Origin: Nemertoderma westbladi
Taxonomy: Eukaryota > Animalia > Xenacoelomorpha
Reading direction: 5' to 3'
NCBI GenBank assembly: GCA_032718475.1
Contig: JAUCBJ010003607.1
Coordinates: 1-48,491 of the forward strand
Length of the DNA: 48,491 nucleotides
The translations under genes and the position numbers were made by a program. This document shows positions 2,789-27,086 of this stretch, piece by piece. The notes under the pieces were generated by a model, which made no database searches, was not told where the DNA came from, and saw only the letters and a program-made list of their open reading frames with translations. Each line of letters begins with the position of its first letter. Positions within the stretch are counted from its first letter, which is position 1.

Positions 2789-3637
2789 GGGTACGGGTCG
2801 ATTCGCCACTCGACCTTTTCACCCCAAGTCGATTAGCCCCACGCCCACATTTTAGGGGCATATGGTTGTATGGACCTGGGGCGAATCGACTTGGACAGTT
2901 GACTGATTCGCCCCACCCTCCAAGTCCATTCGCCCCAGATGATATTATTGAATGTTTTACTAATATTCTTTGATATTAGATATTGTATTACTGTATTAGA
3001 CTACATATTACAATGATATTAGAAAGTGCAATATTGAAATCTTGTTACAAACACATTTTTTACCCTCGATTACGCATAATATTTTTTAGACCTTCAATCT
3101 ATCTGTCTATTGCAATAAATTACAGTAGAAATCTTGTTACCAACACTTTTGAACCTCGATTACGCGTAATATTTTCTGAAGATCTTATAATGTGAAACAA
3201 ATTGATAAGGTAAATCAAGCAAATCCAAATGTTGTTTCTGTCCTGCTGTCTACTTTCCTTTTAAGCTTCAACATATTGAATCACGTGACTCACATGCAAT
3301 AGTGGTAACTCTCATAGGCAACTCTTGTGGCCCAGCAAGGGTTCGAACCCGTGGGACCTAGAAGCATATATAATGAATTACATGTGAAACAAATTGATAT
3401 GGTAAACCTCTGGCAGTCTGGTTATCATCTGGTAGGCCTACTTCTGCACTCTACCTAAAAAGAATATTAGTAAAACATTCAATAATATCAGCTGGGGCGA
3501 ATGGACTTGGAAGGTGGGGCAGTGGGGCGAATCGGTCAACTGTCCATGTCGATTCGCCCCGACGCCCCAGGTCCATACAGCCATATGCCCCTATAATGTG
3601 GGACGAATCCACTTGGCACTTGGGGCGAAAAGGCCGA
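2789..3637. mobile_element. MITE-like element with ~170-bp imperfect inverted arms
   Basis: ~2797-2970 (GATTCGCCCC...GATATTATTGAATGTTTTACTAATATTCTT) is the reverse complement of ~3460-3635. Exact termini and TSD not resolved. Confidence 0.7.
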
Positions 3638-4358
3638 CAAATATATTTTGGTTTCATGCATGACTGCATGAAACCCACAGACTAAAGACTTTTAAGTTTC
3701 TGTCTTTAATGTAACATCGTTTTAGGATCCAATGTAACATAATTGAGGTTACGTTCGATTCATAAAAACTATGTTACATTCGATACTGATTACTGGATTA
3801 CGTTCGGTCTGTCTGTCTGTCACCCAAAATGGGTCCGACGAATTTGTACAAAAAAGTACAAAAAATTCAAAAGAATACAAAAGAGTACCGGTACAATAAA
3901 GTGCAAAAATAGTACAAAAGAGTGCAAAAATAGTACAAAAGAATACAAACGAGTAAGAAACGCTTGCAAAACGTGTATGCAAGTGTAGTTCAAATCGTTT
4001 AGAGGGGCGCACACGATGTGCAAAATAAAACAAAGCATTGTCTGATTGTGGGGCGAGCCATGCATTGAGCGGGGGCTGATCTAGCTGTCTAGCAGTCAGA
4101 GAGTAGGCCCCTATCTACCTATTACAATACAATCTTATGAGTTTTAATGCAGCCCTTTGCGTTCAAAAAACGGCCCCAAGTGCAGAAGTGCCAAGCCCGC
4201 AAAATTGCAGAGGGAGAACTCCTGAACTCAATAAAGTTGCAGATTGAGGCGTACCGTACATACAGACATACATAGCCTACATAATGTAGCATACAGTCTA
4301 TCCTTCTACGGAAGCCCACAGTGGCCACTAATCTTCACACATAAGAACTGCTCTCAAT

Positions 4359-4710
4359 ATGTGTGAGAGGTTGTCTTTGTGTGTGAGAGGTTGTCTTTGT
4401 GTGTGAGAGGTTGTCTTTGTGTGTGAGAGGTTGTCTTTGTGTGTGAGAGGTTGTCTTTGTGTGTGAGAGGTTGTCTTTGTGTGTGAGAGGTTGTCTTTGT
4501 GTGTGAGAGGTTGTATTTGTGTGTGAGAGGTTGTCTGTGTGTGAGAGAGGTTGTCTTGGTGTGTGAGAGGTTGTCTTTGTGTGTGAGAGGTTGTCTGTGT
4601 GTGAGAGGTTGTCTTTGTGTGTGAGAGGTTGTCTTTGTGTGAGAGGTTGTCTTTGTGTGTGAGAGGTTGTCTTTGAGTGAGAGGTTGACTTTGTGTGTGA
4701 GAGGTTGTCA
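4359..4710 (+). repeat. Left subterminal minisatellite, ~20-bp unit GTGTGTGAGAGGTTGTCTTT (~18 copies)
   Basis: Tandem array directly internal to the left TIR. Confidence 0.95.
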
Positions 4711-4989
4711 GCTCCGCAATTCAACAATTATATTAAAAAATGCGCGAAATTTGCCTGTAGGCTTAGCACTTAGCTATAAATAGGCCTGTATGCTTACGGC
4801 TGTAGTAGTGCAGTAGTGCATACTGTAGTACTGCTGTCGTGTGGTTAACGCTGTAACGGTAGGCCTACTGCTGTGTGCTGTACTGTTGCTGTGTTGGTTG
4901 GTTGTAGTTCTACCTGTCTGTCGCCTGTTGGTTCGGTACCAATTCTTAAATTCGAACTGTATTTGTAAACACCGTCTTACAATGTCAGA

Positions 4990-7017
4990 ATGTTGTGTTC
5001 TAGATGCCACAGTGTTGTACCTATCGGATCCGTATTTTGTAACCTCTGTGGGGAATCGATTCAACGCGGCAGCGACGAGAGATTGACCACTCTGGAGGAG
5101 CCGCTAATGCGATTTCGGGAATTTCTATCAGAGAAGAAGAAAGGCCATCTTCAGCCGGTGCCGTCGTCCAGTCCAAAGCGCTCAAAAACGGATGCTGATG
5201 TGTCAGTGAATATCGGAGCCTGTGTTTATACCAACAATATTCGCATTTTAAAACAAGTCTGGTGGAAGACTATACAACTAACTATCTCTAAAAATGCAAA
5301 TTATGGTGAACTTCTCGAATTATCGATACGGAAATACCGAGCCCTTTATAAAGATGTATTTAAATCCTCCATTCCTGATGATAGATTAATGCTATTATAT
5401 ATGGACAAGACACCCGCAGATAAGTTGCCGATTGACAAGGGGGACTTTATATTAACAAAATATCAGACGGAAATTGGAAAACAGTTCCGGCGATTAACCT
5501 TTCTGCTTTGTGATAAAGCCGACTATGAACTCTCCTTAAACACTGAGGAAGGACAAACAGGAAGCGATACCGGTAGAGATGAGCGGAGTGGAAGTGAAAA
5601 TGATCCGAGTGGAAGCGATACCGGTAGAGGATGCGAGCTAAGACGAGACCATACAGCCGGGCAGCCTCCAGTTCCTACGGAGAGGAGTACACCTCAACTA
5701 GTTACTACAAATCATCCCAATGGAGGCCGGATTAGTGGAACTTCGCAGGTAGGTTGTCATCAACCCGACTTTCAAACAGATGAAATTTATGTTATTGATG
5801 ATGATGATGAAAATAGCAACGGTACCGGTAATCCTAATCATGGTATTAATATCAACCAATCAGATGAACCTGCTAAAGATTTTATAACTTTTAATAAAAA
5901 CTACTTTGAATTATCTCGTAGTGATATGGAGATTATTCAGAGCGCGGCTGTTGAGTATGATTATTATGTATTGGATGATAATGTCGAAATAGCATATAAT
6001 TATATTCGCGTTAGAAGGAGAAACCTGTTAAAAGATATGCTAAATAAGGTCGAGCATTTAAATCCCCGTGGCTACTTGAAAATTAGATTTATTGGCGAAC
6101 CTGGGGAAGATCAAGGTGGCCTCCGAAGGGATCTATTTGGCTCTATTATCACTAATCTACACTCGAGTGCTCTCTTTTTTATTTACGACGATTTGTTGGC
6201 GCCATCTTGTGCAGACATGTCTTTGGTTGTTAATGGGACTTTCAACAAACTTGGAAAGCTCATAGCAATGTCATTTTACCACGGTGAACAATCTTTTGGG
6301 ATCATGCATCCTGTCGTTAGTGCTTATATAGTTTATGGACAGTTTATCGATATATTAAGTATTATTAAAACTCATCCAACCTTGTCTGATGGAAACTTAA
6401 TGGACAAATATTTATCAGATAGTGTTCGTGATAGCTATGATGTTGGACTGATTCCACCAACTCTTGAAGCCTCTCTAGCAGAAAAGGAAAAGTTCATTTG
6501 CAATTTCTTGAAGGTTAAGTTAATACTACACAATAAGGCTGCTCTGGATTGTATCAAGGACGGAATTTTTGATTGCATGCCGAATGTTAGTAAATATATT
6601 CTATTCAAGTTCCTGTGTTCTTCGCCCACTGTCGACCTTGTCGATGTCTTTGACTCAGCTATTATCAATAACCGAACCGAAGTTGGTTCCAATAACCACA
6701 TGAGAGAGGAGGACGTTCTATTCTGGCTAGGAGAACTAATGGAAGATTTAGTTTCACAGGGTTACCTGGCTGATGGTGAATTACAAATGGATATTTCGAG
6801 CCTAAAGTGCTGGTTTTTTGGCTCACCGAGACCAACTAATATTCCAAAGCTAACAATTGAATTTAAGCATTGCCAACCAGCATGTAACTGCCGAATGACA
6901 TTTTCAACATGTGCATTTCAACTCTCGCTTCCGATTCATTTTAATTCAAAACACGATCTATGCAAAGGAATTGTTAGCGCCGTCCTAGAAAGTGGGGCAG
7001 CCTTCGGATTGATATAA
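4990..7017 (+). CDS. Transposon-borne HECT-domain E3 ubiquitin ligase-like protein (G2E3-like), 675 aa, with N-terminal Cys4 zinc ribbon
   Basis: Uninterrupted ORF. N-terminal CSRC-x10-CNLC; HECT N-lobe IRVRRRNLL...IRFIGEPGEDQGGLRRDLF; catalytic-type FSTCAFQLSLP (Cys641, codon 6910-6912); terminal FGLI places the conserved Phe at -4. AATAAA at 7101. Confidence 0.85.
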   Translation: MLCSRCHSVVPIGSVFCNLCGESIQRGSDERLTTLEEPLMRFREFLSEKKKGHLQPVPSSSPKRSKTDADVSVNIGACVYTNNIRILKQVWWKTIQLTISKNANYGELLELSIRKYRALYKDVFKSSIPDDRLMLLYMDKTPADKLPIDKGDFILTKYQTEIGKQFRRLTFLLCDKADYELSLNTEEGQTGSDTGRDERSGSENDPSGSDTGRGCELRRDHTAGQPPVPTERSTPQLVTTNHPNGGRISGTSQVGCHQPDFQTDEIYVIDDDDENSNGTGNPNHGININQSDEPAKDFITFNKNYFELSRSDMEIIQSAAVEYDYYVLDDNVEIAYNYIRVRRRNLLKDMLNKVEHLNPRGYLKIRFIGEPGEDQGGLRRDLFGSIITNLHSSALFFIYDDLLAPSCADMSLVVNGTFNKLGKLIAMSFYHGEQSFGIMHPVVSAYIVYGQFIDILSIIKTHPTLSDGNLMDKYLSDSVRDSYDVGLIPPTLEASLAEKEKFICNFLKVKLILHNKAALDCIKDGIFDCMPNVSKYILFKFLCSSPTVDLVDVFDSAIINNRTEVGSNNHMREEDVLFWLGELMEDLVSQGYLADGELQMDISSLKCWFFGSPRPTNIPKLTIEFKHCQPACNCRMTFSTCAFQLSLPIHFNSKHDLCKGIVSAVLESGAAFGLI

Positions 7018-7175
7018 TGGTTGTTGTATTTAGTATTGTTTTAAATGGGGTATTGATGGTTTTAGTTGGATTTTAATAATTGTAGATATTGCCTCTTTTA
7101 AATAAAAGTTCACTGTTGTTTTTTATTAATTATAATTTCAAATTTTTGTTTTTTTTATTTGAAAAACAATGAGTT

Positions 7176-7896
7176 AATGCCGAAATTTCGGTTCCGGCCG
7201 GAACCGGAACCGGAATTACAATTGCCGGAATATTCCGACCGGAACTGGAATTTTCATAAACTAACCCCTTGGTATCATAGAATCCACGAAATAGTTAGGG
7301 TGGGGTCTAGCATTTTTTTTCTTTAAAACTTAGATTTAAATTTAAATAAAACTCATATTCAAATAGTTATCAAAAGAACAGTACAGCACATACAAAATAC
7401 AGCACGTAAAATCTAAATAATTACTCACCAACCACCACCAGCTGTATTTGACGGCTGCCTAGCAACCAGATTGCTATTTAAACTTCCAGTATGTACTGCT
7501 GTACTGTGTACTGCTTACCACTGCACTGCCATTCAGCCTGTTGGGTCCGAGTTTGCATTAGCCAGGAGAATGGAGATTGTTTTAGTTAATTGGATATGAA
7601 ATTAAACTATGTAACCTTTTATTTCAATTTATTGTTTTAAAAAAATGCTTATTTGTTAAAGTTTAAAAATAATAATTGTAATATCCAAAATTAATACTAT
7701 CAGCACGATTAATACTAAATACTATCAACTTAAATTAATACTATCAGCTCGTTTTGTAGAGGGTATAAAGGTATATTATTTAGAAGAAAAAAAAACGAAA
7801 ATTCCGGCATTCCGGCGCCGGAATCTCTGTAATTCCGGCCGGAATCGGTCAAAAACTGCCTAATTTCGGCCGGAACGGAATTCCGATACATCCCTA
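7176..7896. mobile_element. hAT-like MITE (left end eroded) inserted between the two transposon genes
   Basis: CCGGAA(C)-rich subterminal blocks at 7178-7252 and 7800-7886. Right end ...GATACATCCCTA matches the TAGGGATGT terminus seen at 22847. No TSD found. Confidence 0.55.
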
Positions 7897-8097
7897 AATC
7901 TTGGGTGTAATCCCACCCCCCCCCCCTTTTTTTTTTACTATGGACTCAGATTCAGGTGGATAAACGGTACTGTGGTGGAGAGCGTGACTGTATTTATTGA
8001 GGACCGCCAATGATTATTTTTATTATTAATTATCATAACATAATATAGTATTATATCATAAACTTAAAGCAAAAGAGCAACAAGGGTAGGTACCAAA

Positions 8098-9234
8098 TCA
8101 TTGGTAATGATTTGCTTTGATGAAATAGAATCGCTGCAGCGCTTCTTTGCAATTACTTGGAGTGGACCAACCGAGTGTTCGACTCAAGTAGCAGCAATAT
8201 TCTGTAACTGTGCTGACCTGAGATGGATAAACAAGTTCATCAGCTACAATAGCTATACTGCAATTGGGCACAGTGACACTGAGTCTATCTTGACCATTCC
8301 GGTCACCAGGGTTGAAATAATTGTAGATAGGTCTTCCATTAACCGTGTTACGATGGGACCTACGAATGTAATGTGTGTTCCAATGGTGAATAACATTGTC
8401 AAGTTCGGACTGAATCAGTTGCGAGAACGAGAACCACATTATATCGCATTGTGCCGAGTCTGATGGGTCGTAAACACCTACTTCAATTAAGTCTTTGAAG
8501 AAATTAATCCAGAAATTTCCCCAGGATCTGCGCAAGTAAGACCACCATCCCTCTATACGCTGGTTTCGATGAGAGCCGATGTATTGATGAGCATCAATGT
8601 TGTCATTGAAAAAAGCTTGTGTGGCAGCCATAATCCCATTTTCAGTTCCCTTCCTGGGACACCCATAAAGTTTTATAGTTTCTAAGAACAATGAGCAGAT
8701 AATGTTGGGATTATTGTTCGATCTTAGAACTCTGAGCCACATAATATATCGAGACCAGCCATCAATAGCACCGTGGATGGCAAAACCGTAGGGTTTCAGT
8801 TTATCGTGTCCATCCGCATGCCAAACAGCATTCGGCCCAATCGTAAAGTACTGCCGTCGCTGAAGGCGATGCCGTCGACGCAACTCAGTCGAGTTCGGAG
8901 ATAGAGTTCGTAATATCAGAGCTACATCTCTTCTCGGAATTTGGAACCCTTTAAGTTTAAGTTGATGCCATACACTTCTGTAGCCCCAGCACGAGGAAGA
9001 ACCTTGAGTTATTGTGGTTATCTCTCTTACAATTGTATCGAGATCGTAAGTATTCCCGGTATTCCGCCGAGAAAGTCCTAGATCGTGCAAGCGGCGGCGT
9101 AAAGTTCGCTTAGTCAAAATTATGCCGTGATTTCGAGAAATAATACTAATGAGTTCTTGATGAGTATGACCTTAGCGAAAGTAATAACTTAGAATGTTAT
9201 GGAGATCATTATTATTACTAGTTGGCATACTCAT
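8098..9234 (-). pseudogene. IS3/integrase-like DDE transposase with premature stop and in-frame deletion
   Basis: In-frame ATGs at 9234/9228 give MSMPTSNNNDLHNILSYYFR*GHTHQELISIISRNHGIILTKRTLRRRL (HTH-like), with TAA at 9174-9172. Core VWHADGHDKLKPYGFAIHGAIDGWSR and NQRIEGWW are present. GCPRKGTEN lacks the usual P..xRxDxGxEN aspartate. Confidence 0.85.
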
Positions 9235-9407
9235 TTTTCAGTACAAAGTACAGAATTACAGAATTATAAGTATGTTCACTAATACTGTATAATAGCAAGC
9301 CATACTGCTGTACTGCAGCCCTACAGGGCTAAATAAATACTGTCAATTCGCCTATGAATACAATTCAAATTTCGCGCCTATTTTGTGTTACCATGGAGTT
9401 GTGGAGC

Positions 9408-9661
9408 TGACAACCTCTCACACACAAAGACAACCTCTCACACAAAGACAACCTCTCACACACAAAGACAACCTCTCACACACAAAGTCAACCTCTCACA
9501 CAAAGACAACCTCTTACACATAATGGACAACCTCTCACACAAAGACAACCTCTCACACACAAAGACAACCTCTCACACATAATGGTCAACCTCTCACACA
9601 CAAAGACGACCTCTCACACATAAAGACAACTTCTCACACACAAAGACAACCTCTCACACAT
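9408..9661 (-). repeat. Right subterminal minisatellite (inverse of left array, ~13 copies)
   Basis: AAAGACAACCTCTCACACAC units, more degenerate than the left array. Confidence 0.95.
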
Positions 9662-11045
9662 ATTGAGAGCAGTTCTTATGTGTGAAGTTTAGTGGCCACT
9701 GTGGGCTTCCGTAATCCTTCAGTATATGGGCTACTTTAAGACTATGACATAAATTTTGAGTTTCAGTTATAGGCTGATAGGAGTTTTATCTACCCACTGC
9801 ATAGTATTGCATTATATTGCAGTATTGTGTATTACATATTATACGAACTGTAGCCTATTTCTACTTGTAAGCCAGTCAAAATCTACATGAATCAAAGTTC
9901 TGTCAATCATTTCGTACTCACCACAGAACCAAGGCCGCTAGTGATTGACACTGTAGCGGCGCATATTTCGGTCCCATTGCATTTGCTTACAATTATTATA
10001 TTTATATACAAGTGTAGTGTACCGTACGTAGTGTATACTACAGTACTACACTGGTACCTATACACGTTTATCACTCGTTTGTACTCTTTTGTAGGCCTAC
10101 TATTTTTGCACTCTTTTGTACTATTTTTGCACTTTATTACAATAAAGTACAATATAGTAAAATAAAGTAAATTACGAATTAAAATATATTAATTTAAGTA
10201 AATTAAGTAAATATTAATTAGTAAATTAACAATAAAGTAAAATAGTACAATATAGTACAAAAGAGTAGGCCTACAGGCCTACTCTTTTGTACTTTTTTGT
10301 ACAGATTCGTCGGACCGCCCAAAATACGGCAGTACGGGGCAGGGCAGATGCTGGCTGAGGCTGATATGGACTTGCTGACTTAGGGCGAATAAGTTAGACT
10401 CACCTTTTAACCTTTAGAACAGTAGAATGATGTTAGGCCTACTGCTGTACTGCGCAGCGCTTGATACTTCTGTACTTGGTACTTGAAGTCGCAGTTTGCT
10501 GTGTAGTCCAGTCTGCAAGTGGGCTAGGCCCTACTAAATCCAAACGCTACTTCTACAGTTCTACGACTTCTGAATTGGAATTCCTTGCTGAGTTGCTTCG
10601 GGTCCAATCTGGTAATCCAGTAATCTAATGCCAGAATGCAGAATGCTGTATGTACCCTGTAGTACCTGTAATGCAGTACCGGTACAGCAGTAAATGCACA
10701 CGTTTCGCTGTCAGACCACAGGCTGATACCAGAGACAGTCGACGTCAGACAGTGATTATTGGTATCGGTTACCGGTTACCGCTATTTAATAGCTCGTTTA
10801 GTTTTCAAGTTATAACTATTTCCATTTAGGGAATCCTATTGAAATTACTATTACTATGTATAATGAAAGGTCGATTATCTCCAAATATTTTTTTTATGAA
10901 ATTGTCAACTTCAAAACCCTACTACTTCTACAATTTTTGAGCAATTAGTCTGAAACTTTCTGTGGGTGTCTATTAGCCACCCTGCATAAAAGTATCAGAC
11001 AACTTTTCGAAATTTTTTGTTAATAAAATTTAATACTATTTATAA

Positions 11046-12866
11046 CGAGAAAGGCATTTCCTAAAGGAAATGCAACCACGAAGCTAAGGAAAATTAAACA
11101 AACGGCCACACTTTGGTTCGTTGCTTAGCTTCGTTTAGTAGCATTTGTCAATAAATTAACTTCTATTCCCATGGAAACTAGAGTTCTCTGGAACTGTTGC
11201 TTTAACCTTTGAAAAAAAAATCAGTACAGATTGTGGTTCAGATAACACATATACTGAGTTTCAGAAAATATTGTAGTTTATGTCCAAATTACCGATTTTC
11301 TATCAAAATGCATCTGTTTGCAGTGGTTGTCATGGAAACTGAAAAATAGAACAATGTAATTCGGATGCAGAATAAGTCATATAGTGGGGGTAGGTCTTGG
11401 TCCCAAGTCATAATACTATTAACTTGTACTTCAAATTATCATTTTATAAATTTTAACATCTGTTCAGACTTGTTGCTATGGTAACTGTATTTTCTAATTA
11501 GCCTCAAACGGCTTGGATATGGATCTTATAGATGAGTTGCAAAACCCCAAGTTTATATATATTACAGTTTTGCTACAAATAGAGTTATCAATATAGACTT
11601 GAATGATATAGAGTTTAATAAACTACAGTTACCATGGTAACTAAATTTCTGGAATAATTTAAGTTTCACTAAAAGTTCCAACTAGTGGTCCAGATAACAC
11701 ATACCCAGTTTTGTAAAATTTTATCGCGAAGTCTATGTCCAAATGAATAATTTTTGTATAAAAACATCTGTTTACTGCGGTTGTCATGGTAACTGAAGAA
11801 TAGAACAATGTAATTCGGATGCAGAATAAGTTATATAGTGGGGGTCTATCAAAATGCATCTGTTTGCAGTGGTTGTCATGGAAACTGAAAAATAGAACAA
11901 TGCAATTCGGATGCAGAATAAGTCATATAATGGGGGTAGGTGTTGGTCCCAAGTCATAATACTATTAACTTGTGCTTCAAATTATCATTTTATAAATTTT
12001 GACATCTGTTTAGTCTTGTTGCGATGGTAATTGGATTGTGTAAATAACCTCGAACGGCTTGTACAGTATATGGACCTTATAGATGAGTTGAAAAACCCCA
12101 AGTTTATATATATTACAGTTTTGCTACAAATCGAGTTATGAATATAGACATGAATAATATAGACTTTAATAAACTACAGTTACCATGGTAACTAGATATT
12201 TCTGGAATGATTTGAGTTTCACTAAAAGTTCCAACTAGTGGTCCAGATAACACATACCCAGTTTCGTAAAATTTTAACATGAAGTCTATGTCCAAATGAA
12301 TAATTTTTGTATAAAAACATCTGTTTTCAGCGGTTGTCATGGTAACTGCAAAATAAAACAATCAAATTCGGATGCAGAATAAGTTATATAGTGGGGGTAG
12401 GGGTTGGTCCCAAGACATAACACCTTGTCCTTAGACTTCAAATTATCATTTTAAAAATTTTAACATCTGTCTAGCCCGGTTGCCCTGGTAACTGGATTTT
12501 CTATTTAACCTCAATCGGCTCTGCTATGGACCTTATAGTTGTGTTGAGAAACCCCAAGGTTATATGTATTATAGTTTTCCTACAAATAGAGTTACAAGTA
12601 TTGACTTGAAATACATAGACTTTTTTCTAAGTCCGTTGCCATGGAAACCAGATTTTTCCTGGATATGAGACCCATCCCACACGACGCGCCTTGATGAGTT
12701 GTATATACATGCAAAATTTCAGGGTACTTTTAAAGGCTAGTTTTTTCACCTATCAAAAAACACTAAATCTGCTCCATACAAGTAAAACAGCCCACTATGA
12801 ATAGACCATCTCAGCTAAGGAAAATCTTTCTTAGCGAAAGTAGTTGATTTTCCTTAGCTTCGTGGA
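11046..12866 (-). mobile_element. Non-autonomous Helitron copy A (1821 bp, internal ~0.55-kb duplication)
   Basis: Minus strand starts TCCACGAAGCTAAGG and ends hairpin GCATTTCC-TTTA-GGAAATGC + CTTTCTCG. Inserted at A|T with no TSD. Confidence 0.85.
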
Positions 12867-12962
12867 TAATGCACCATTGAATGGTGTTTCCAAATCTGAA
12901 AACCGCTATTTAATAGCTCATTTAGTTTTCAAGTTATAACTATTTCCATTTAGGGAATCCTA

Positions 12963-14239
12963 CGAGAAAGGCATTTCCTAAAGGAAATGCAACCACGAAG
13001 CTAAGGAAAATTAAACAAACGGCCACACTTTGGTTCGTTGCTTATAGCCTAGTTTAGTAGCAATTGCCAATAATTTACGTCTATTCCCATGGAAACTAGA
13101 GTTCTCTGAAACTGTGGGTTTTACCTTTGAAAAAAGATTCAGTCCAGATTGTGGTTCAGATTATAACACATATACCGAGTTTCAGAAAATATTGTAGTTT
13201 ATGTCCAAATTACCGATTTTCTATCAAAATGCATCTGTTTGCAGTGGTTGTCATGGAAACTGAAAAATATAATAATGTAATTCGGATGCAGAATAAGTCA
13301 TATAGTGGGGGTAGGTCTTGGTCCCAAGTCATAATACTATTAACTTGTGCTTCAAATTATCATTTTATAAATAGTAACATCTGTTTAGTCTTGTTGCTAT
13401 GGTAACTGTACTTTCTAATTAACCTCAAACGGCTTGGATGGATATGGAAATTATAGATGAGTTACAAAACCCCAAGTTTATATATATTACAGTTTTGCTA
13501 GAAATAGAGTTATCAATATAGACTTGAATGATATAGAGTTTAATAAACTACAGTTACCATGGTAACTAAATTTCTGGAATGATTTAAGTTTCACTAAAAG
13601 TTCCAACTAGTGGTGCAGATAACACATACCCAGTTTTGTAAAATTTTATCGCGAAGTCTATGTCCAAATGAATAATTTTTGTATAAAAACATCTGTTTTC
13701 GGCTGTTGTCATGGTAACTGAAAAATAGAACAATGTAATTCGGATGCAGAATAAGTTATATAGTGGGGGTAGGGGTTGGTCTCAAGTCATAACACCTTGC
13801 CCTTAGGCCTCAAATTATCATTTTATAAATTTTAACATCTGTTTATCCCGGTTGCCAACGTAACTGGATTTTCTATTTAGCCTCAATCGGATCTGCTATG
13901 GACCTTATAGTTGTGTTGCGAAACCAAAAAGTTTAAATCTATTATAGTTTTCCTACAAATAGAGTTATAAATATTGACTTGAAATACATAGACTTTTTTT
14001 GAAGTCCGTTGCCATGGAAACCAGATTTTTCCTGGATATGAGACCCGGCCCAAAAGATGCGCCTCGCCGAGTAGTATATACATGCAAAATTTCAGGGTAC
14101 TTTTAAAGGCTAGTTTTTTCGCCTATCAAAAAACCCCAAATCTGCCTCACACAAGTAAAATAGCCCACTATGAATAGACCATCTCAGCTAAGGAAAATCT
14201 TTCTTAGCGAAAGTAGTTGATTTTCCTTAGCTTCGTGGA
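12963..14239 (-). mobile_element. Non-autonomous Helitron copy B (1277 bp)
   Basis: Same 5'-TC / hairpin / CTCG-3' termini as copy A. Confidence 0.85.
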
Positions 14240-14652
14240 TACTACTCGGCGAGACGCATCTTTTGGGCCGGGTCTCATATCCAGGAAAAATCTGGTTTCC
14301 ATGGCAACGGACTTAGAAAAAAGTCTATGTATTTCAAGTCAATATTTGTAACTCTATTTATATGAAAACTATAATAGATATAAACTTGGGGTATCTCAAC
14401 ACAACTATAAGGTCCATAGCAGAGCCGATTGAGGTTAAATAGAAAATCCAGTTACCTTGGCAACCGGGCTAAACAGATGTTAAAATTTTTAAAATGTTAA
14501 TTTGAAGCCTAAGGTTAAGGTGTGATGACTTGGGACCAATCCCTACCCCCACTATATAACTTATTCTGCGTCCGAATTTGATTGTTCTATTTTGCAGTTA
14601 CCTTGACAACCGCTGAAAACAGATGTTTTTATACGAAAATTATTCATTTGTA
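14240..14652 (+). mobile_element. Inverted internal fragment (C) of the same Helitron family
   Basis: Reverse complement of the family segment represented by ~13665-14076; neither terminus is present. Confidence 0.85.
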
Positions 14653-15916
14653 CTAGAAAGGCATTTCCTAAAGGAAATGCAACCACGAAGCTAAGGAAAA
14701 TTAAACAAAGGGCCACAATTTGGTTTGTTGCTTAGCCTAGTTTAGTAGCATTTGCCAATAAATAACTTCTATTCCCATGGAAACTAGAGTTCTCTGGAAC
14801 TGTTGGTTTTACCTTTGAAAAAAGATTCAGTCCAGATTGTGGTTCAGATAACACATACGAGTTTCAGAAAATATTGTAGTTTATGTCCAAATTACAGATT
14901 TTCTATCAAAATGCATCTGTTTGCAGTGGTTGTCATGGAAACTGAAAAATAGAACAATGTAATTCGGATGCAGAATAAGTCATATAGTGGGGGTAGGGGT
15001 TAATCCCAAGTCATAATACTATTAACTTGTGCTTCAAATTATCATTTTATTAATTTTAACATCTGTTTAGTCTTGTTGCTATGGTAACTGGATTTTCTAA
15101 TTAACTTCGAACGGCTTGTATATGGACCTTATAGATGAGTTGCAAAACCCCAAGTTTATATATATTACAGTTTTGCTACAAATAGAGTTATCAATATAGA
15201 TTTGAATGATATAGAGTTTAATAAACTACAGTTACCATGGTAACTAAATTTCTGGAATAATTTAAGTTTCACTAAAAGTTCCAACTAGAGGTCCAGATAA
15301 CACATACCCAGTTTTGTAAAATTTTATCGTGAAGTCTATGTCCAAATGAATAAGTTTTGAATAAAAACATCTGTTTTCAGCGGTTGTCATGGTAACTGAA
15401 AAATAGAACAATGTAATTCAGATGCAGAATAAGTTATATAGTAGGGGTAGGGGTTGGTCCCAAGTCATAACACCTTGCCTTTAGGCCTCAAATTTACATT
15501 TTATAAATTTTAACATCTGTTTATCCCGGTTGCTAAGGTAACTGGATTTTCTATTTAGCCTCAATCGGATCTGCTATGGACCTTATAGTTGAGTTGAGAA
15601 ACCCCAAGTTTATATCTATTATAGTTTTCCTACAAATAGAGTTATAAATATTGACTTGAAATACATAGACTTTTTTTGAAGTCCGTTGCCATGGAAACCA
15701 GATTTTTCCTGGATATGAGACCCGGCCCAAAAGATGCGCCTCGTCGAGTAGTATATACATGCAAAATTTCAGGGTACTTTTAAAGGCTAGTTTTTTCACC
15801 TATCAAAAAAAAACAAATCTGCCTCATACAAGTAAAATAGCCCACTATGAATAGACCATCTCAGCTAAGGAAAATCTTTCTTAGCGAAAGTAGTTGATTT
15901 TCCTTAGCTTCGTGGA
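14653..15916 (-). mobile_element. Non-autonomous Helitron copy D (1264 bp)
   Basis: 5'-TC...hairpin...CTAG-3' on the minus strand. Confidence 0.85.
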
Positions 15917-15934
15917 TTGAAATTACTGTTACTA

Positions 15935-16879
15935 CGAGAAAGGCATTTCCTAAAGGAAATGCAACCACGAAGCTAAGGAAAATTAAACAAACGGCCACAC
16001 TTTGGTTCGTTGCTTGCTTAGCCTCGTTTAGTAGCAATTGTCAATAATTAACTTCTATTCCCATGGAAACTAGAGTTCGCTGGAACTGTTGCTTTAACCT
16101 TTGAAAAAAAATTCAGTACAGATTGTGGTTCAGATAACACATGTACTGAGTTTTAGAAAATATTGTAGTTTATGTCCAAATTACCGATTTTCTATCAAAA
16201 TGCATCTGTTTGTAGTGGTTGTCATGGAAACTGAAAAATAGAACAATGTAATTCGGATGCAGAATAAGTCATATAGTGGGGGTAGGTGTTGGTCCCAAGT
16301 CATAATACTATTAACTTGTGCTTCAAATTATCATTTTATAAATTTTAATATCTGTTTAGTCTTGTTGCTATGGTGACTGGAATTTCTAATTAACCTCGAA
16401 CGGCTTGGATATGAACCTTATAGTTGAGTTGAGAAATTCAGGCTTAGGCTTCAAATTAACATTTTATAAATTTTAACATCTGTTTATCCCGGTTGCCAAG
16501 GTAACTGGATTTTCTATTTAGCCTCAATCGGATCTGCTATGGACCTTATAGTTGTGTTGCGAAACCCCAAGTTTATATCTATTATAGTTTTCCTACAAAT
16601 AGAGTTATAAATATTGACTTGAAATACATAGACTTTTTTTGAAGTCCGTTGCCATGGAAACCAGATTTTTCCTGGATATGAGACCCGGCCCAAAAGATGC
16701 GCCTCGTCGAGTAGTATATACATGCAAAATTTCAGGGTACTTTTAAAGGCTAGTTTTTTCGCCTATCAAAAAACCCCAAATCTGCCTCACACAAGTAAAA
16801 TAGCCCACTATGAATAGACCATCTCAGCTAAGGAAAATCTTTCTTAGCGAAAGTAGTTGATTTTCCTTAGCTTCGTGGA
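15935..16879 (-). mobile_element. Non-autonomous Helitron copy E (945 bp, internal deletion)
   Basis: 5'-TC...CTCG-3'; inserted at host TACTA|TGTA. Confidence 0.85.
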
Positions 16880-16883
16880 TGTA

Positions 16884-18139
16884 CTAGAAAGGCATTTCCT
16901 AAAGGAAATGCAACCACGAAGCTAAGGAAAATTCAACACTCTTTGACTCATCACTTCATTGCTTTACAGAGTTAAGAGGCATATGCCTTTAAAACTCATT
17001 ACCATGGCAACCGGAGTTTTCTAGAACTGCTGAGGATTACATTAAGATCCGGTTTGTGGTTCCAGGTGACACATACTTCAATTCAGTTTCATTGAGTAGT
17101 TAATGTGTAAAACAAAGGATTTAATTGTTAAAACGTCTGTTTGTAGTGGTTGTCATGGAAACTGAAAAATGCGACAAATTAAATTGGATGCGTAATTAGT
17201 GATATAGTGGGGGTAGGGATTGGTCCCAAGTCGTAATACCTTAATGTTATGCTTCAAATAACCATTTTATAAATTTGAACATCTGTTTAGCATGGTTGCC
17301 CTGGTAACTGGATTTTCTAATTAACCTGAATCAGCTCGACTATTGTCCTTATCATTGAGTTGAGAAACCCCAAGTTTATATCTATTGCGGTTATTCTATA
17401 AATAGAGTTATGAATATAGACTTGAATGATATAATCAGTAATAAACTCCAGTTACCACGGTAACTAGATATTTCTGGAATGTTTTTTAGTTTCACTAAAA
17501 GTTCCAACTAGTGGTCTAGTTAACACATAACTAGTTTCGTAACATTTTATAGCGAAGTCTATGTCCAAATTAGTAATTTTTGTATAAAAACATCTGTTTA
17601 CAGCGGTTGTCATGGTAACTGCAAAATAGAACAATCAAATTCGGACGCAGAATAAGTTATATAGTGGGGGTAGGGGTTGGTCCCAAGTCATAACACCTTA
17701 ACCTTAGGCTTCAAATTAACATTTTATAAATTTTAACATCTGTTTAGCCCGGTTGCCAAGGTAACTGAATTTTCTATTTAACCTCAATCGGCTCTGCCAT
17801 GGACCTTATAGTTGAGTTGAGAAACCCCAAGTTTATATCTATTATAGTTTTTCTACAAATAGAGTTATAAAGATTGACTTGAAATACATAGACTTTTTTC
17901 TAAGTCCGTTGCCATGGAAACCAGATTTTTCCTGGATATGAGACCCATCCCACACGATGCGCCTCGACGAGTAGTATATACATGCAAACTTTCAGGGTAC
18001 TTTTAAAGGCTAGTTTTTTCACCTATCAAAAAACCCCAAATCTGCCTCATACAAGTAAAATAGCCCACTATGAATAGACCATCTCAGCTAAGGAAAATCT
18101 TTCTTAGCGAAAGTAGTTGATTTTCCTTAGCTTCGTGGA
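16884..18139 (-). mobile_element. Non-autonomous Helitron copy F (1256 bp, divergent subfamily)
   Basis: 5'-TC...CTAG-3'; inserted at host TGTA|TAATG. Sequence next to the 3' end differs from A/B/D/E. Confidence 0.85.
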
Positions 18140-18318
18140 TAATGAAAGGTCGATTATCTCCAAATATTTTTTTTATGAAATTGTCAACTTCAAAACCCTA
18201 ATACTTCTACAATTTTTGAGCAATTAGTCTGAAACTTTCTGTGGGTGTCTACATAGCCACCCTGCATAAAAGTATCAGACAACTTTTCGAAATTTTTTGT
18301 TAATAAAATTTAATACTA

Positions 18319-19570
18319 CTAGAAAGGCATTTCCTAAAGGAAATGCAACCACGAAGCTAAGGAAAATTAAACACTCTTTGACTCATCAGTTCATTGATTT
18401 ACCGAGTTAAAAGAACTCCCGGTATTGCCAAGGTAACTGGACTTTTCTAGAGATGCTGAGTTTTACATTAAGATCTAGTTTGTGGTTCCAGGTGACACAT
18501 CGACTTCAAGGAAGCTTCATTGAGTAGTTTATGTGCAAAATTAATTATTAATTTGTTAAAAAGTCTGTTTGCAGTGGTTGTCAAGGTAACTGGCAAATAG
18601 AACAACGTAGATTGGATGCAGAATAAGTGATATTATGGTGGTAGGGGTTGGTCCCAAGTCATAATGCCTTTAACTTGTGTTACTAATTATAATTTTTTAA
18701 ATTATAACATCTGTTTAGCCTGGTTACCAAGGTAACTGGATTTTCTAATTAACCACAATTGGCTCCTCTAAGGACCTTCCTTATAGTTGAGTTGGGAAAC
18801 CCAATATTTATATCTAATACAGTTTTCCTACAAACAAGAGTTAAAAATATAGACTTGAATGATATTGACTTTAATAAGCTCCAGTTACCATGGTAACTAG
18901 ATATTTCTGGAATGTTTTGAGTTTCACTAAAAGTTCCAACTAGTGGTCCAGATAACACATACCCAGTTTTGTAAAATTTTATCGTGAAGTCTATGTTCAA
19001 ATGAGTTATTTTTGTATAAAAACATATGTTTTCAGCGGTTGTCATGGTAACTGCAAAATATAACAATCAAATTCGGAAGCAGAATAAGTTATATAGTGGG
19101 GGTAGGGATTGGTTCCAAGTCATCACACCTTAACCTTAGGCTTCAAATTAACATTTTAAAAATTTTAACATCTGTTTAGCCCGGTTGCCAAGGTAACTGG
19201 ATTTTCTATTTAACCTCAATCGGCTCTGCTATGGACCTTATAGTTGTGTTGAGAAACCCCAAGTTTATATGTATTATAGTTTTCCTACAAATAGAGTTAC
19301 AAATATTGACTTGAAATACATAGACTTTTTCTAAGTCTGTTGCCATGGTAACCAGATTTTTCCTGGATATGAGACCCATCCCACACGACGCGCCTTGATG
19401 AGTTGTATATACATGCAAAATTTCAGGGTACTTTTAAAGGCTAGTTTTTTCACCTATCAAAAAACCCCAAATCTGCCTCATACAAGTAAAATAGCCCACT
19501 ATGAATAGACCATCTCAGCTAAGGAAAATCTTTCTTAGCGAAAGTAGTTGATTTTCCTTAGCTTCGTGGA
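18319..19570 (-). mobile_element. Non-autonomous Helitron copy G (1252 bp, F-like subfamily)
   Basis: 5'-TC...CTAG-3'; inserted at host TAATACTA|TTTATAA. Confidence 0.85.
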
Positions 19571-19702
19571 TTTATAACAAACCTAAAATTTTGCATAAAT
19601 TTGCAGCGCCACCTAGCGGTGCAGAAATATTTTCACAAAATTTCGCCTGATAGTTATGTTGCCCTACTACTAGGATCGGCATGCTGCATTGCAGCTGCAT
19701 TT

Positions 19703-19959: not shown

Positions 19960-22728
19960 GAACGCGGATTCAATTTATTTACTAAGTTTTATTGGATCCG
20001 GGAAGGGGTGTAAAACGCAGTTAATTACTAAGTGTTACTGGATCAGTGTAAAACGCGGATTCAATTTATTTACTAAGTTTTATTGGATCCGGGAAGGGGT
20101 GTAAAACGCAGTTAATTACTAAGTGTTACTGGATCAGTGTAAAACGCGGATTCAATTTATTTACTAAGTGTTTCTGGATCCGGGAAGGGGTGTTAATTAA
20201 AGAAGTTAAGTAAGGGAAAATAAAAATGAACAGTTTACAAGTCGAATATAATTAAACATCAATAAACACAAACATACTTTTTTATAATAAACAAACACAC
20301 CAACACTCATATAATGTAGGAATGAATTACCTGTTGTAACAATAATTGCAGGCCAGACGTCCCAACACTTTAATAAATAATTCATTGCGAACGGCTTGCT
20401 GGTAATGTTGTGAATAAACAGTAAATCTAAACTCTAAATAATCAATTGTAATTAAACTTTAAACCAAAGCGATTTTAAATAAGAAACTTAGTTAAACGTA
20501 ACTTATAATAAATTGAGCTGCCGGGGAGGCAGCGCTTATTATATATTGGTGTTGGTGTCTGTAATACAAAGCGAACAAATGTCTGGCCATTGACCTTGTG
20601 TCTTTGTGTGAAGCCGCGCTACCCAATAATAAGACGGTATAACAATTATTGGTTGTACAAGCAAAGGCAATGTATACGTTAATGTATAATAATATGTTGC
20701 TTGGCGTGGGTGGCTGAGGCCTTGGCATTGGTTGGTTAGTTTCAAGGGTGATATGTTCTAGAATATTAAATTATTTGCCTTGAGTGAACCAAACCAACCA
20801 ACCACTCAATGCTGAAGCACAGCACATTGTATCCCGGCCGGGCGGCGGCCGTCTGGCGCCTCCTACAACACAATGCAAGTAGCTCAATATTGGTTTTAAA
20901 TTCTCTTGTAAATATTTTCCAACTCAATAAAAAATATTCACTTAAAATTTTTTTTTTTTTTTTTACACATCGTTGCAGTGTATATTCATTATCAAAATTA
21001 CTTGTTTAACAAATTAAGTATTATAGTCAAACAGGTATTAAGTTAATCCAATGCAGCTGCCTAAAGTTAGTTATTCTAATAATGCCCGAAACGGCGGTTA
21101 GACTATGTAGTACAGTAGAGTTTAATCTACCACCCGTCTATACGTGCCTCCGCCACCGCTGCGCTGATGGCGGTCTCCCCCAAGCTACGCGAGTTCAACT
21201 TTGCCCTTGAACTCCGTGCGCCCCTCAAGCACATTATTGATGCCCGTAGTAGGGCAAAACTAAGTATGTATATAACTATAGAGGGGTGGGGAGGTGTTAG
21301 CGGTGCCGCAATAATTAACTTGAATCCGCGTTTTACACCTCTTCCCAGATCCCGGATCCAATTAAACTTAGTAATTAACTTCAATCCGCGTTTTACACCC
21401 CTTCCCGGATCCAATAAAACTTAGTAATTAACTTGAATCCGCGTTTTACACCCCTTCCCGGATCCAGTAACACTTTGTAATTAACTTGAATCCGCGTTTT
21501 ACACCCCTTCCCGGATCCAGTAACACTTTGTAATTAACTTGAATCCGCATTTTACACCCCTTCCCGGATCCAATGAAACTTAGTAATTAACGTAAATCCG
21601 TGTTTTACACTCCATCCCGGATTCACAAAATATATGAATCCGCATTTTACACCCCTTCCCGGATCCAATGAAACTTTGTAATTAACTTGACTCCGCGTTT
21701 TACACCCCTTCCCGGATTCATAAAATATATGAATACGCGTTTACCAGTAACACTTTGTAATTAACATGAATCCGTGTTTTACACCCCTTCCCGGATCCAG
21801 TAACACTTTGTAATTAACATGAATCCGTGTTTTACACCCCTTCCCGGATCCAATAACACTTGGTAATTAAAATGAATCCGCTTTTCACACCCCTTCCCGG
21901 ATCCAGTAACACTTGGTAATTAACATGAATCCGTGTTTTACACCCCTTCCCGGATCCAGTAACACTTTGTAATTAACATGAATCCGTGTTTTACACCCCT
22001 TCCCGGATCCAATAACACTTGGTAATTAAAATGAATCCGCTTTTCACACCCCTTCCCGGATCCAGTAACACTTAGTAATTAACGTAAATCCGTGTTTTAC
22101 ACTCCATACCGGATTCACAAAATATATGAATCCGTGTTTTACACCCCTTCCCGGATCCAGTAACACTTTGTAATTAACATGAATCCGTGTTTTACACCCC
22201 TTCCCGGATCCAATGAAACTTAGTAATCAACTTGTATCCGCGTTTTACACCCCTTCCCGGATCTAGTAACCCTTGGTAATTAAAATGAATCCGCGTTTTA
22301 CACCCCTTCCCGGATCCAGTAACACTTGGTAATTAACATGAATCCGCGTTTTACACCACTTCCCGGATCCAATAAAACTTGGTAATTAACGTAAATCCGT
22401 GTTTTACACTCCATCCCGGGTTCACAAAATATATGAATCCGCTTTTCACACCCCTTCCCGGATCCAGTAACACTTGGTAATTAACATGAATCCGCGTTTT
22501 ACACCACTTCCCGGATCCAATAAAACTTGGTAATTAACGTAAATCCGTGTTTTACACTCCATCCCGGATTCACAAAATATATGAATCCGCGTTTTACACT
22601 GCAATACGGATTGCTTATTTCAGAATCCGCATATTACACTCAGTTACGGATTGTATATAAATCCGGATCCGCCTTTTACACTCGCAAATCCGGGTCCTGG
22701 ATCCGGATCCGCGTTTTACACCTACCCC
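19960..22728. mobile_element. Foldback-like non-autonomous element with inverted minisatellite arms
   Basis: Left arm 19960-20195 (91-bp period, GGATCCGGGAAGGGGTGTAAAACGC) is inverse to the right array. Right end ...GGATCCGCGTTTTACACCTACCCC. Left terminus missing. Confidence 0.6.
21312..22600. repeat. ~53-bp minisatellite (~25 units) GAATCCGYGTTTTACACCCCTTCCCGGATCCARTAACACTTDGTAATTAACWT
   Basis: Period measured 21435 to 21488 = 53 bp. A shorter variant (...GGATTCACAAAATATAT) recurs several times. Confidence 0.92.
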
Positions 22729-24383: not shown

Positions 24384-27086
24384 TCATTGGTAGAGAACAA
24401 CCAACTGTTTGGCCGACTTGGCGATATCGTAAGCGGACTGTATCACTTGTTGGGATATGGAGCCCGAATCCACATCCTCCTCGTCGCCCGTGGCCACCGC
24501 CTGGCAGTCCCGTTGCAAGGCAGACAGACTGGACCGCATTAGATGGAGTACCTTCCGAGTGCTTTCGGACCGCGGTCGCTCCGGAAACAAACTAATCATA
24601 TCCTGTACGGAGGCGGCGATCCGAGTTGCGCACGGGATGAACCGCTCGCAGCGGCCCTGCTGCGCCAAACGCAGCAGCTCCTGGATGTTCTTCGTTATTC
24701 GTTCGGTTTTCGGTATCATTTCGTCGAGGCCCGGCTTGTCTTCAAGAAGCGAAGGTCGCAGTCGGATTGCGCTGGTCAAGGAGGCGGAGCGCAGGGCGCG
24801 GGTCTCCACCGGGGGTATTGTGGTCAGTGTTGCTTGGTTACCAGATAGATTCGCTTGGTTACCAGATAGATTCGCTTGGTTACCAGATAGATTCGCTTGG
24901 TTACCAGATTCTAACCCGTTGTTGATAACAGTGGGATCCAATCGACTGCTGGTTCGTTTAGGGGAAACGCACCCTTCCCCACGCGGGATCCCCCCATCCC
25001 CACGCGGGATTCCCCCATCCCCTCTCGGGATTCCCCCATCCCCTCTCAGGATGCCCCCATCCCCACGTGGGATCCCCCCATCCCCACGTGGGATCCCCCC
25101 ATCCCCACGTGGGATCCCACCATCCCCACGTGGGATCCCCCCATCCCTCTCCTCCTCACACCGTTCTAACAACCGCCGGTTCCTCTCCCCCGATCCCTCC
25201 CGCGAGCTGTACCGTCTGTGGACCGCTCCGTCGGACTGCGTGGCCGACGGCGTTGACGGCAGGGTGGAGGCGCCGTCCACAGCGGCCTGGAGGATGCGGG
25301 AGGCCGCGTTGCTGATCCGCGGGATATCGTAGTCAACGTCCACTGAGGAGTGGCGGTAAACGGTAGGAGGTGTAGCACGCGAGGGGCCCTTGTATGCGGG
25401 CGAACCGGGGTACACAGTCGGCTGACGTTTCGGAATCGGCGGTGAACCATAGTTGTGGCTGAGGGGAGCCACAGACGCCACCGGCGCCTCGCTGCCACCC
25501 AATGGGGAATCGCGCCGTTGATGCACCCATGTGGCGTTGTGGCTGTAGGTTAGCGGCGCTGCGTAGGAAGAGCGCGTTGGGGAGATAGGGGATGTCGTCG
25601 ATTGAAGATCGTCTGAAGGATCGCGTCTGTGAGGGAGTGTCTGCGATTGCCTGTCCGAATGTCCGGCTTGTCCGGTTTGTGTGTAGGAGTTTCTCGGGTG
25701 TCCGGGTTGCGTCGAGTGTCCCGGCGCGGCTGCGGACAGCGGGGACAATAGGGCGGCTGTGGATGGGACGGCGCCGGCGCGAGGCAGCGTGTGGTACTGG
25801 TTGAGGAACGGCGGATCGGTCATCGGGGCGGTGGCGGGATGAACGGTCACCGGGTAACCGTAGAAACCCCAGCCGCCGGCGGCCGGTGTGGCGCCGTTGA
25901 TTGCGCCACCCACGGAAGGCGTCAGCGGATAGAATGGCGACTCTACAACAGAGTAAGGACGGGCCGTGGCCAAGGGAACTAGAACCTGTGTGTCGGGACA
26001 CCGAGGCGGTGTTAGTAGATGGTGCAGGTCCGCGTACTGCTTTATCTGGAGGTGCAACCTCGCGTTATCCGCCATTAGTTTCTCTACGACATTCCGCATC
26101 ACCTCCAACTCTTTACTGAGTTTCTCTTTGTCCATCTCGGCGAGCTGGTTATCTAAAGTGGCGCGAGCGGCAGCCGCTTCCACGGCGCGATCCAGACTCA
26201 CCTTCAGTTCCGCGCACTCCGAACGGGAGTCCGCAAGGGCGCGGTTCAGCTCGGCACATTCGGATCGGGCTTCCGCGAGCTCGTGGCCGTCGGACGGTTG
26301 TCCGTCCGTTGGTAATGTCGGTGTCGGCGCCGGGCGCCGCACAGGGGCAACGGCCGATGCTGGTTTATCAACGGCGACGGAGACAACGAGTGGTGGACGG
26401 TCGGGTTCGACGGAAGGAGTTGTCGAGGTTCTCCCGATAAACTCCTCGATTGTGTCGACAAACACGTCTCCCTCGCTACTTACGGTACCCCGGGTGCTTA
26501 CTCTTTCCTCCTCTGGTGTCGGTACCAATGGGGATGTCGCAATCGAACCACCAATCTCTTGTATCCCGCTGCCTTCATCCCGTATCTCGAGCCCTTCCCC
26601 TGTTGCACCGGGACTTTCCACTGTTGTAACGGGACTTTCCTCTGTTGTACCGGGACTTTCCCCTGTTGTCCCGGGAACTTCCACCTGTACTCCACAAGCT
26701 TCCCCCTCCACCTCACCTCCCTTCCCATCCCCGATATTATCCCCCTGCCTCCCGTCTACCGCCGCCCTCACCTCGCAATCTGATGCAACCTCGTCGTATA
26801 CCGGTTCCGTGTCGCTCACGCATCGCGTTAGATTGCCGCCGCTGATGGAGGCCGTCAAACGGACGGAGGCGCTGTGGACCGGCGGCGATATTCCCGCGCG
26901 GTGCTGAGCCTCTATGAGGATGTCGACGATGAGAGAGGCGAACTCTTTGGCGTTGAACCTGGCGAGTTTCTGTCGTCCTTGGTTACGAGTTGACGAGAAC
27001 TCGGGATTGATTGGCAGATGGGCGCAGGTGTTAGTCTGGGATACCAGGGAACTGTGATTCTGAGTTGCCAGCCAAATTGTTTCCAC
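24384..27086 (-). CDS. GIT: ARF GTPase-activating protein GIT, exon 2 (second SHD repeat, coiled coil, long low-complexity region, GIT1_C paxillin-binding domain)
   Basis: IWLATQNHS...LPINPEFSSTRNQGRQKLARFNAKEFASLIVDILIEAQHR and C-terminal KTERITKNIQELLRLAQ...QQVIQSAYDIAKSAKQLV are GIT1/GIT2 signatures. Acceptor TTTGTGCAG|GTG at 27087/27086. Confidence 0.92.
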   Translation of the reverse strand: METIWLATQNHSSLVSQTNTCAHLPINPEFSSTRNQGRQKLARFNAKEFASLIVDILIEAQHRAGISPPVHSASVRLTASISGGNLTRCVSDTEPVYDEVASDCEVRAAVDGRQGDNIGDGKGGEVEGEACGVQVEVPGTTGESPGTTEESPVTTVESPGATGEGLEIRDEGSGIQEIGGSIATSPLVPTPEEERVSTRGTVSSEGDVFVDTIEEFIGRTSTTPSVEPDRPPLVVSVAVDKPASAVAPVRRPAPTPTLPTDGQPSDGHELAEARSECAELNRALADSRSECAELKVSLDRAVEAAAARATLDNQLAEMDKEKLSKELEVMRNVVEKLMADNARLHLQIKQYADLHHLLTPPRCPDTQVLVPLATARPYSVVESPFYPLTPSVGGAINGATPAAGGWGFYGYPVTVHPATAPMTDPPFLNQYHTLPRAGAVPSTAALLSPLSAAAPGHSTQPGHPRNSYTQTGQAGHSDRQSQTLPHRRDPSDDLQSTTSPISPTRSSYAAPLTYSHNATWVHQRRDSPLGGSEAPVASVAPLSHNYGSPPIPKRQPTVYPGSPAYKGPSRATPPTVYRHSSVDVDYDIPRISNAASRILQAAVDGASTLPSTPSATQSDGAVHRRYSSREGSGERNRRLLERCEEERDGGIPRGDGGIPRGDGGIPRGDGGIPRGDGGILRGDGGIPRGDGGIPRGDGGIPRGEGCVSPKRTSSRLDPTVINNGLESGNQANLSGNQANLSGNQANLSGNQATLTTIPPVETRALRSASLTSAIRLRPSLLEDKPGLDEMIPKTERITKNIQELLRLAQQGRCERFIPCATRIAASVQDMISLFPERPRSESTRKVLHLMRSSLSALQRDCQAVATGDEEDVDSGSISQQVIQSAYDIAKSAKQLVVLYQ
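24830..24910 (-). repeat. Coding 21-bp tandem repeat (SGNQANL x3-4) in GIT
   Basis: TTCGCTTGGTTACCAGATAGA repeated on the + strand. Confidence 0.9.
24976..25146 (-). repeat. Coding 21-bp tandem repeat (GDGGIPR x8) in GIT
   Basis: CCCCACGYGGGATYCCCCCAT units, in frame. Confidence 0.92.

Follow-up and report, generated by a model that had tools for sequence, protein, structure and literature searches.

The closest described relatives of the element considered here are the IS3EU and GingerRoot DNA transposons (PMC10045372, PMC6839031), which have TA..TA ends, long terminal inverted repeats (TIRs), an integrase-type DDE transposase and a distribution in aquatic animals. Their target-site duplications (TSDs) are usually 6 bp, with 7 bp recorded for 5 of 77 GingerRoot copies, and in Selaginella GingerRoot elements are described that captured host gene fragments, partial and 79-98% identical to host genes (PMC6839031). 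A study of fungal TET-carrying IS3EU elements (PMC12730594) describes TAYGG..CCRTA ends and, opposite to the transposase, a gene for a protein-modifying enzyme, with an alpha-kinase accompanying a TET/JBP protein that is proposed to act in anti-silencing. More broadly, conserved host-derived accessory proteins of DNA transposons, including the IS3EU-derived Intons, are reported to regulate transposition (Kapitonov, via PMC3520738). The window analysed here, i.e., the whole 48,491 nucleotides of contig JAUCBJ010003607.1 (assembly GCA_032718475.1) from Nemertoderma westbladi, holds an element of this known type at 4307-9713. It has the TA..TA ends, long TIRs and integrase-type DDE transposase of IS3EU/GingerRoot and differs from their usual 6 bp in its 7-bp TSD; it has the ends and gene arrangement of the fungal elements, and where they carry alpha-kinase and TET/JBP genes it carries a predicted HECT ubiquitin ligase gene (ORF2, for open reading frame 2). 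With the Kapitonov accessory proteins it has the general idea in common, although the passage concerned names no ligase. The window copy is disabled, and its HECT companion is a genuine, selected and exchangeable feature of the family that we have not found in print.

The features of the element are as follows.
4300-4306: left TSD copy, 7 bp, from the sequence and single-copy empty sites in contig sets X1 and X2
4307-9713: IS3EU/GingerRoot element, TACGG..CCGTA at its ends, with long TIRs and flanked by a 7-bp TSD
4307-4709, plus strand: left TIR with its TACGG end and a 20-bp array at 4360-4709
4990-7017, plus strand: ORF2, 675 residues, frame open, with a Cys4 zinc ribbon, ubiquitin-like domain, disordered linker and HECT domain (predicted)
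4996-5049, plus strand: putative Cys4 zinc ribbon (C3, C6, C17, C20), Pfam Zn_Ribbon_1 E = 0.027, below cut-off
5176-5550, plus strand: predicted ubiquitin-like beta-grasp, residues 63-187, with a predicted local distance difference test (pLDDT) score of 94
5980-7014, plus strand: predicted HECT domain, predicted catalytic Cys641 at codon 6910-6912, Phe at position -4
7186-7900: high-copy repeat between the two genes, resembling a miniature inverted-repeat transposable element, limits approximate, from contig depth
8098-9234, minus strand: IS3EU/GingerRoot DDE transposase, disabled, PF24764 E = 1e-25
9409-9713, minus strand: right TIR with a 20-bp array at 9409-9660
9714-9720: right TSD copy, 7 bp, from the sequence and empty sites

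ORF2 and its predicted HECT fold

ORF2 converges with the transposase gene and is laid out, from N to C terminus, as a zinc ribbon, a basic stretch, a ubiquitin-like domain, a disordered linker and the HECT domain. A preliminary description of the window, made from its letters and reading frames, had reported a 675-residue protein with a Cys4 zinc ribbon, the GExGxDxGG motif, a catalytic cysteine and the -4 Phe, and all of these can be read in the frame at 4990-7017: the ribbon has the form CxxC..CxxC, GEPGEDQGG stands at residue 369, F672 is the -4 Phe, and C641 of 675 occupies the place, about 30-35 residues before the C terminus, that is typical of the HECT cysteine. The spacing from motif to cysteine is 272 residues, compared with about 282 in E6AP. 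Of the 22 aligned relatives long enough to cover these positions, all 22 have C641 and 20 have F672; nine rows of the alignment stop earlier.

The fold itself was harder to recognize. A Pfam scan of ORF2 gave no HECT (PF00632) match at E ≤ 0.1, phmmer against E6AP reached only E = 0.009, and a word-index protein search returned nothing for ORF2 and two WWP1 records only for its alignment. A full HMMER search found 293 ORF2 relatives, the best listed matches among the top 150 being 23-41% identical, and Pfam HECT was passed by 10 of 80 scanned relatives. A profile of ORF2 with 31 relatives matched 64 solved sequences across both lobes (E6AP best at E = 9e-25, Rsp5 at about 1e-24). The AlphaFold model of ORF2 (mean pLDDT 68.6, predicted template modelling score 0.42) gave Foldseek rows that, as far as shown, were all HECT ligases, the best being HUWE1 (E = 1.2e-11, target TM score 0.55), and identity to solved HECTs was 11-18%. 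Because the direct Pfam match is missing, the HECT call needs the family profile and the fold together, and by this route ORF2 is predicted to have the bilobed HECT fold. It has the GExGxDxGG motif, -4 Phe and predicted fold and catalytic Cys of cellular HECT E3s (E6AP, Rsp5/NEDD4, HUWE1), and is unlike them in its zinc ribbon and ubiquitin-like N terminus and in being encoded in a mobile element found at several sites.

At the N terminus, Zn_Ribbon_1 rises above cut-off in several ORF2 relatives. The best structural match to the ubiquitin-like domain has a VIA-align Z of 9.6 with 88 residues aligned at a root-mean-square deviation of 3.2, in a list full of ubiquitin-like folds; many of its rows are tied, so the subfamily cannot be named. 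A second, non-HECT type of C terminus, at one time considered for some relatives, was dropped, as the proteins in question proved alignable as divergent HECTs. At 6868-6891, immediately ahead of the predicted catalytic Cys, lies an extra Cys/His cluster, HCQPACNC, with related clusters in two HECT subgroups; such clusters may bind metal.

ORF2 does not behave as an orthologue of G2E3: the PHD and RING domains that G2E3 has at its N terminus have no Pfam match in it, and instead of single-copy host synteny the gene has a place between the TIRs of an element present at several sites, which contradicts the host-orthologue alternative that the preliminary description had itself named. When 20 relatives were looked up, three carried the name 'G2/M phase-specific E3 ubiquitin-protein ligase-like' (one from Mytilus, two from Paramuricea), four had hypothetical, uncharacterized or gene-number labels and 13 were nameless. 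In a quick tree, rooted with a single outgroup and poorly supported at its deep nodes, the three group with HECTs linked to transposons. The suspicion that many 'G2E3-like' models in animal genomes are such elements is borne out to the extent that some of them, on this sequence evidence, are supported as members of the ORF2 protein family.

The HECT gene among related transposons

Metagenome contigs were scanned with a transposase alignment, which gave at least 517 confirmed stretches, the best 80 of the 517 being kept as loci (numbered with the prefix L); the named relatives, from corals, jellyfish, a tunicate, a mussel and fish, point to animal hosts as the probable source of this DNA. A HECT gene lies downstream and on the opposite strand in 34 of the 80, many loci being too short to show one. 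With at least 2 kb available downstream, a convergent HECT gene is present in 22 of 27 loci, representing 19 of 22 transposase clusters; none of these loci has one on the same strand, and none occurs upstream in the 10 loci with at least 2 kb on that side. Because the second profile was seeded from the same loci, the more cautious counts are 18 of 27 by the first, independent profile alone and 21 of 27 by the first profile or Pfam. Two loci, L017 and L024, hold a transposase and a HECT gene in an element that is complete, with TIRs and a 6-bp TSD. Taken from these arrangements, the HECT gene is supported as a standing gene of the family rather than one-off cargo.

The loci without a HECT gene include one with a long interspersed nuclear element insertion (L005), one with a G-protein-coupled receptor fragment (L010) and one (L078) in which a convergent protein kinase at 2956-4352 on the minus strand (Pfam E = 3e-41) takes the HECT slot of an IS3EU-type transposase, the ends of that element not having been found. 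Eight further loci, L081-L088, come from metagenome-assembled genomes (MAGs) of GTDB, and their eukaryote-type IS3EU transposases are probably eukaryotic contamination; in L085-L088 the transposase match falls in pieces, as if split by introns, and the contig DNA available holds no HECT. The viral contigs searched yielded no relative. An E2F-like octamer upstream of both window genes (4742, 9370) was rejected as a family feature, being found in 2 of 38 clusters with 1.8 expected.

The pairs of HECT genes that could be compared indicate constraint. The ratio of nonsynonymous to synonymous substitution rates (dN/dS) is 0.19 for L002-L011 and 0.20 for L002-L013; among the other 12 of 14 pairs, three are near 0.5 (two of them involving the frameshifted L017), eight are saturated and one is identical. 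By this measure, the HECT gene is under purifying selection. Between the trees of 21 paired transposases and HECT domains, patristic distances are correlated (Mantel r = 0.34, p = 0.002), a figure that kin sharing traits can produce and that is not proof of co-evolution. The comparison of the two trees, which the preliminary description had called for, yielded this overall correlation together with exchanges between lineages. In approximately unbiased (AU) tests, whose groups were picked on the tree of the partner gene and which chimeric contigs could mislead, the transposases reject as clades the HECT sister pairs L035+L050 (p-AU 8e-43) and L033+L074 (p-AU 0.001), and the HECT domains reject the transposase clade L047+L056+L050 (p-AU 1e-4). 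Between L002 and L011, dS is 1.49 for the transposase and 0.27 for the HECT gene, a contrast that suggests a later HECT exchange. Judged from these trees, the HECT module is exchanged between transposase lineages. Keeping the window's HECT with its transposase clade is not rejected (p-AU 0.40), and for that reason no swap is claimed for the window element.

The N terminus varies within the family as well. A CUE module precedes HECT in 4 of the 80 scanned proteins, and a UBX-like N terminus replaces the zinc ribbon and ubiquitin-like type in L040, L048 (3225-4889) and L050 (7325-8560), with E from 1.5e-4 to 0.047. UBX is a p97-binding domain. These three loci fall in one transposase clade with support 100/100, and since the trio shares that clade, the N-terminal type appears to follow the transposase, even though the HECT of L050 is sister to that of L035, which lies outside it.

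The absence of the pairing from print was assessed in several ways. The words 'HECT' and 'ubiquitin' are absent from the main texts of Kojima and Bao 2023 (PMC10045372) and Cerbin et al. 2019 (PMC6839031), and 'HECT' is absent also from the main texts of PMC12730594, PMC6431247, PMC5718144 and bioRxiv 2021.09.26.461848; in PMC3520738 and PMC13644484 the letters were matched only within other words (trophectoderm, hectare). Literature searches for IS3EU or transposons with HECT, ubiquitin ligase or G2E3, with Repbase, a 2019 review and most supplements outside their scope, returned no account of the pairing. The HECT protein may already be annotated in Repbase, where the labels _1p/_2p hint at a second protein.

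The window copy and its insertion

The element is IS3EU/GingerRoot by its termini, its TSD and its integrase-type DDE transposase, the last assigned from the PF24764 match and from motifs compared by eye. TACGG..CCGTA conforms to the TAYGG..CCRTA terminus, the 7-bp TSD lies within the accepted 6-8 bp (the relatives L017, L024 and L053 have 6 bp), and the core DDE motifs agree, by eye, with the Repbase IS3EU rows. Among 1978 candidates, 417 were transposase relatives, the best 120 of the 417 being 40-49% identical. The TIRs, 4307-4433 and 9587-9713, are 127 nt with 97% complementarity, and inverted 20-bp subterminal arrays, of 17.8 copies on the left and 12.8 on the right, prolong them inward.

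The TSD, ATCCTTC, flanks the element on each side. Four public contig sets from the same organism (X1-X4, at most three samples, with X1 possibly the window's source) were compared with it, contig depth not being taken as copy number. Contigs of X1 and X2 run from the left flank straight into a single ATCCTTC; since the 7-mer is present just once at such empty sites, the duplication is real. Contigs of X1, X3 and X4 connect the right end to several distinct flanks, so the family occupies multiple sites. In X4, a contig that passes from ORF2 sequence immediately into the right array appears to come from a copy with an internal deletion. The preliminary description's bounded IS3EU-type element therefore holds, as does the convergence of its two genes; that it contained only those two does not, as the high-copy repeat lies between them (depth of hundreds to thousands at 7065-7532 and 7845-8000 versus about 40-220 across most of both genes), and 'intronless' is read from open frames alone.

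The transposase gene, which had been taken as intact, is broken. Read on the minus strand from its ATG at 9234, it meets a TAA stop at 9172-9174 as codon 21, and a 15-nt deletion near 8649 removes five residues, among them the second catalytic Asp. That Asp is kept in 41 of 41 aligned homologues. Lacking both an open transposase frame and the full set of three catalytic residues, the window copy is non-autonomous, i.e., unable to transpose by itself. Contigs of X1, X2 and X3 have 15 extra letters at the deletion site and, in most or all of the depth, a sense codon at the stop; because most of these contigs are free of both lesions, an intact-looking transposase sequence exists in the species, though no single contig covers a whole element. 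Modelled in complex with the ubiquitin-like domain, the transposase, in its broken form and with alignments unused, gave a score of 0.00, which is no answer.

The insertion target is a high-copy host repeat with inverted ends (3846-4306 and 9714-10316), its flank depth exceeding 1000. Elsewhere in the window, 11000-19600 and 21244-22682 hold a long higher-order array of units of about 460 bp, with one inverted segment, and a 53-bp tandem array, and a GIT1/2-type ArfGAP gene has large minus-strand exons at 24384-26135 and 29851-30744, the C-terminal exon containing short peptide repeats. The ArfGAP gene agrees with an animal host.

What the ligase may do

The reading we favour, at a probability of about 0.4, is that the family's convergent HECT gene, a predicted ligase, tags its own transposase or end-bound proteins for clearance by p97 and the proteasome. 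ORF2 would be expressed, nuclear and catalytically active; it would ubiquitinate the transposase of its element or proteins bound at the element's ends, the transposition complex being the presumed substrate, and p97/proteasome machinery would then clear the tagged complex. Predicted ligase activity to the benefit of the element is most likely because the gene is kept and selected and has its catalytic residues. The transposition complex is favoured as the target because of the UBX and CUE modules, the N-terminal type that tracks the transposase and a modifying enzyme in the same slot elsewhere, as with the kinase of L078 and in fungi (PMC12730594). That an enzyme modifying proteins is retained in hosts whose silencing systems differ widely would also fit a constant substrate. 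Host action is known to take apart a stable DDE product complex in the case of MuA, which ClpX disassembles.

Several observations weigh against this reading. ORF2 is about 20% identical to its relatives versus 40-49% for the transposase, which fits a host arms race as well, and the N terminus may track the transposase merely through its adjacency to the TIR, a six-sequence test having given no separation. In the ORF2 model, pLDDT falls below 50 at 454-486, in the part that binds the E2 (ubiquitin-conjugating enzyme), and contigs of the same species include frameshifted and nonsense variants of the HECT gene. Five of the 27 loci are without HECT, a HECT piece is found in only 1 of the 8 GTDB MAG loci, and L053:296-3180 is a complete 2.9-kb element with a 6-bp TSD and an open 412-codon transposase frame that has no HECT gene. 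Because of L053 and the other negatives, the ligase is common in the clade and not universal, and the preliminary view of it as a fixed part of the element survives as the convergent gene of 22 of 27 loci, with L053 and the kinase of L078 as departures from it.

An active ligase aimed instead at the host, degrading or modifying silencing or chromatin factors in trans (PIWI-interacting RNA, H3K9 or DNA-methylation readers), is nearly as likely because of the fast divergence of ORF2 and the exchange of HECT modules between transposase lineages. Complete HECT-less elements such as L053 could be helped in trans, and the fungal TET/JBP is proposed as anti-silencing (PMC12730594). For ORF2, however, neither a host substrate nor any known anti-silencing motif came to light, its N-terminal type tracks the transposase clade in the few cases seen, and a benefit in trans would be shared with non-carriers, which would make a fixed linkage harder to keep.

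It is improbable that ORF2 has little or no catalytic activity and serves at the transposon ends as a scaffold or decoy for E2, ubiquitin or p97. The missing direct Pfam match, a low-confidence N-lobe region and the reported inactivity of the HECT of human G2E3 would all suit such a role, and against them stand the conservation of Cys641 (22/22) and the -4 Phe (20/22) and a motif-to-cysteine spacing close to that of E6AP (272 versus ~282). That ORF2 is passive cargo, a captured host gene of the kind known from Selaginella GingerRoot (PMC6839031), is largely refuted already and highly unlikely, for although the two trees disagree in places, the gene keeps its place and direction relative to the transposase in 19 of 22 clusters, is under purifying selection and has a tree correlated with that of the transposase (r = 0.34, p = 0.002), and the captured fragments are partial and 79-98% identical to host genes while the best listed matches of ORF2 are at 23-41%.

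A bolder generalization, in which IS3EU/GingerRoot elements consist of a transposase and a fixed, exchangeable modifier slot (HECT in animals, a kinase in some others), the ligase ubiquitinates the transpososome for extraction by p97, as a self-encoded eukaryotic equivalent of ClpX acting on Mu, and most invertebrate and fish 'G2E3-like' expansions are transposon genes, is doubtful as a whole. A transposon lineage that keeps a ligase nonetheless provides a testable handle on the regulation or disassembly of eukaryotic DDE complexes, or on the disarming of host silencing. The relatives of ORF2 form a large and very divergent HECT family that is often missed by Pfam, and where gene families of animals are counted as expanded, some of the 'G2E3-like' members may be mobile DNA.

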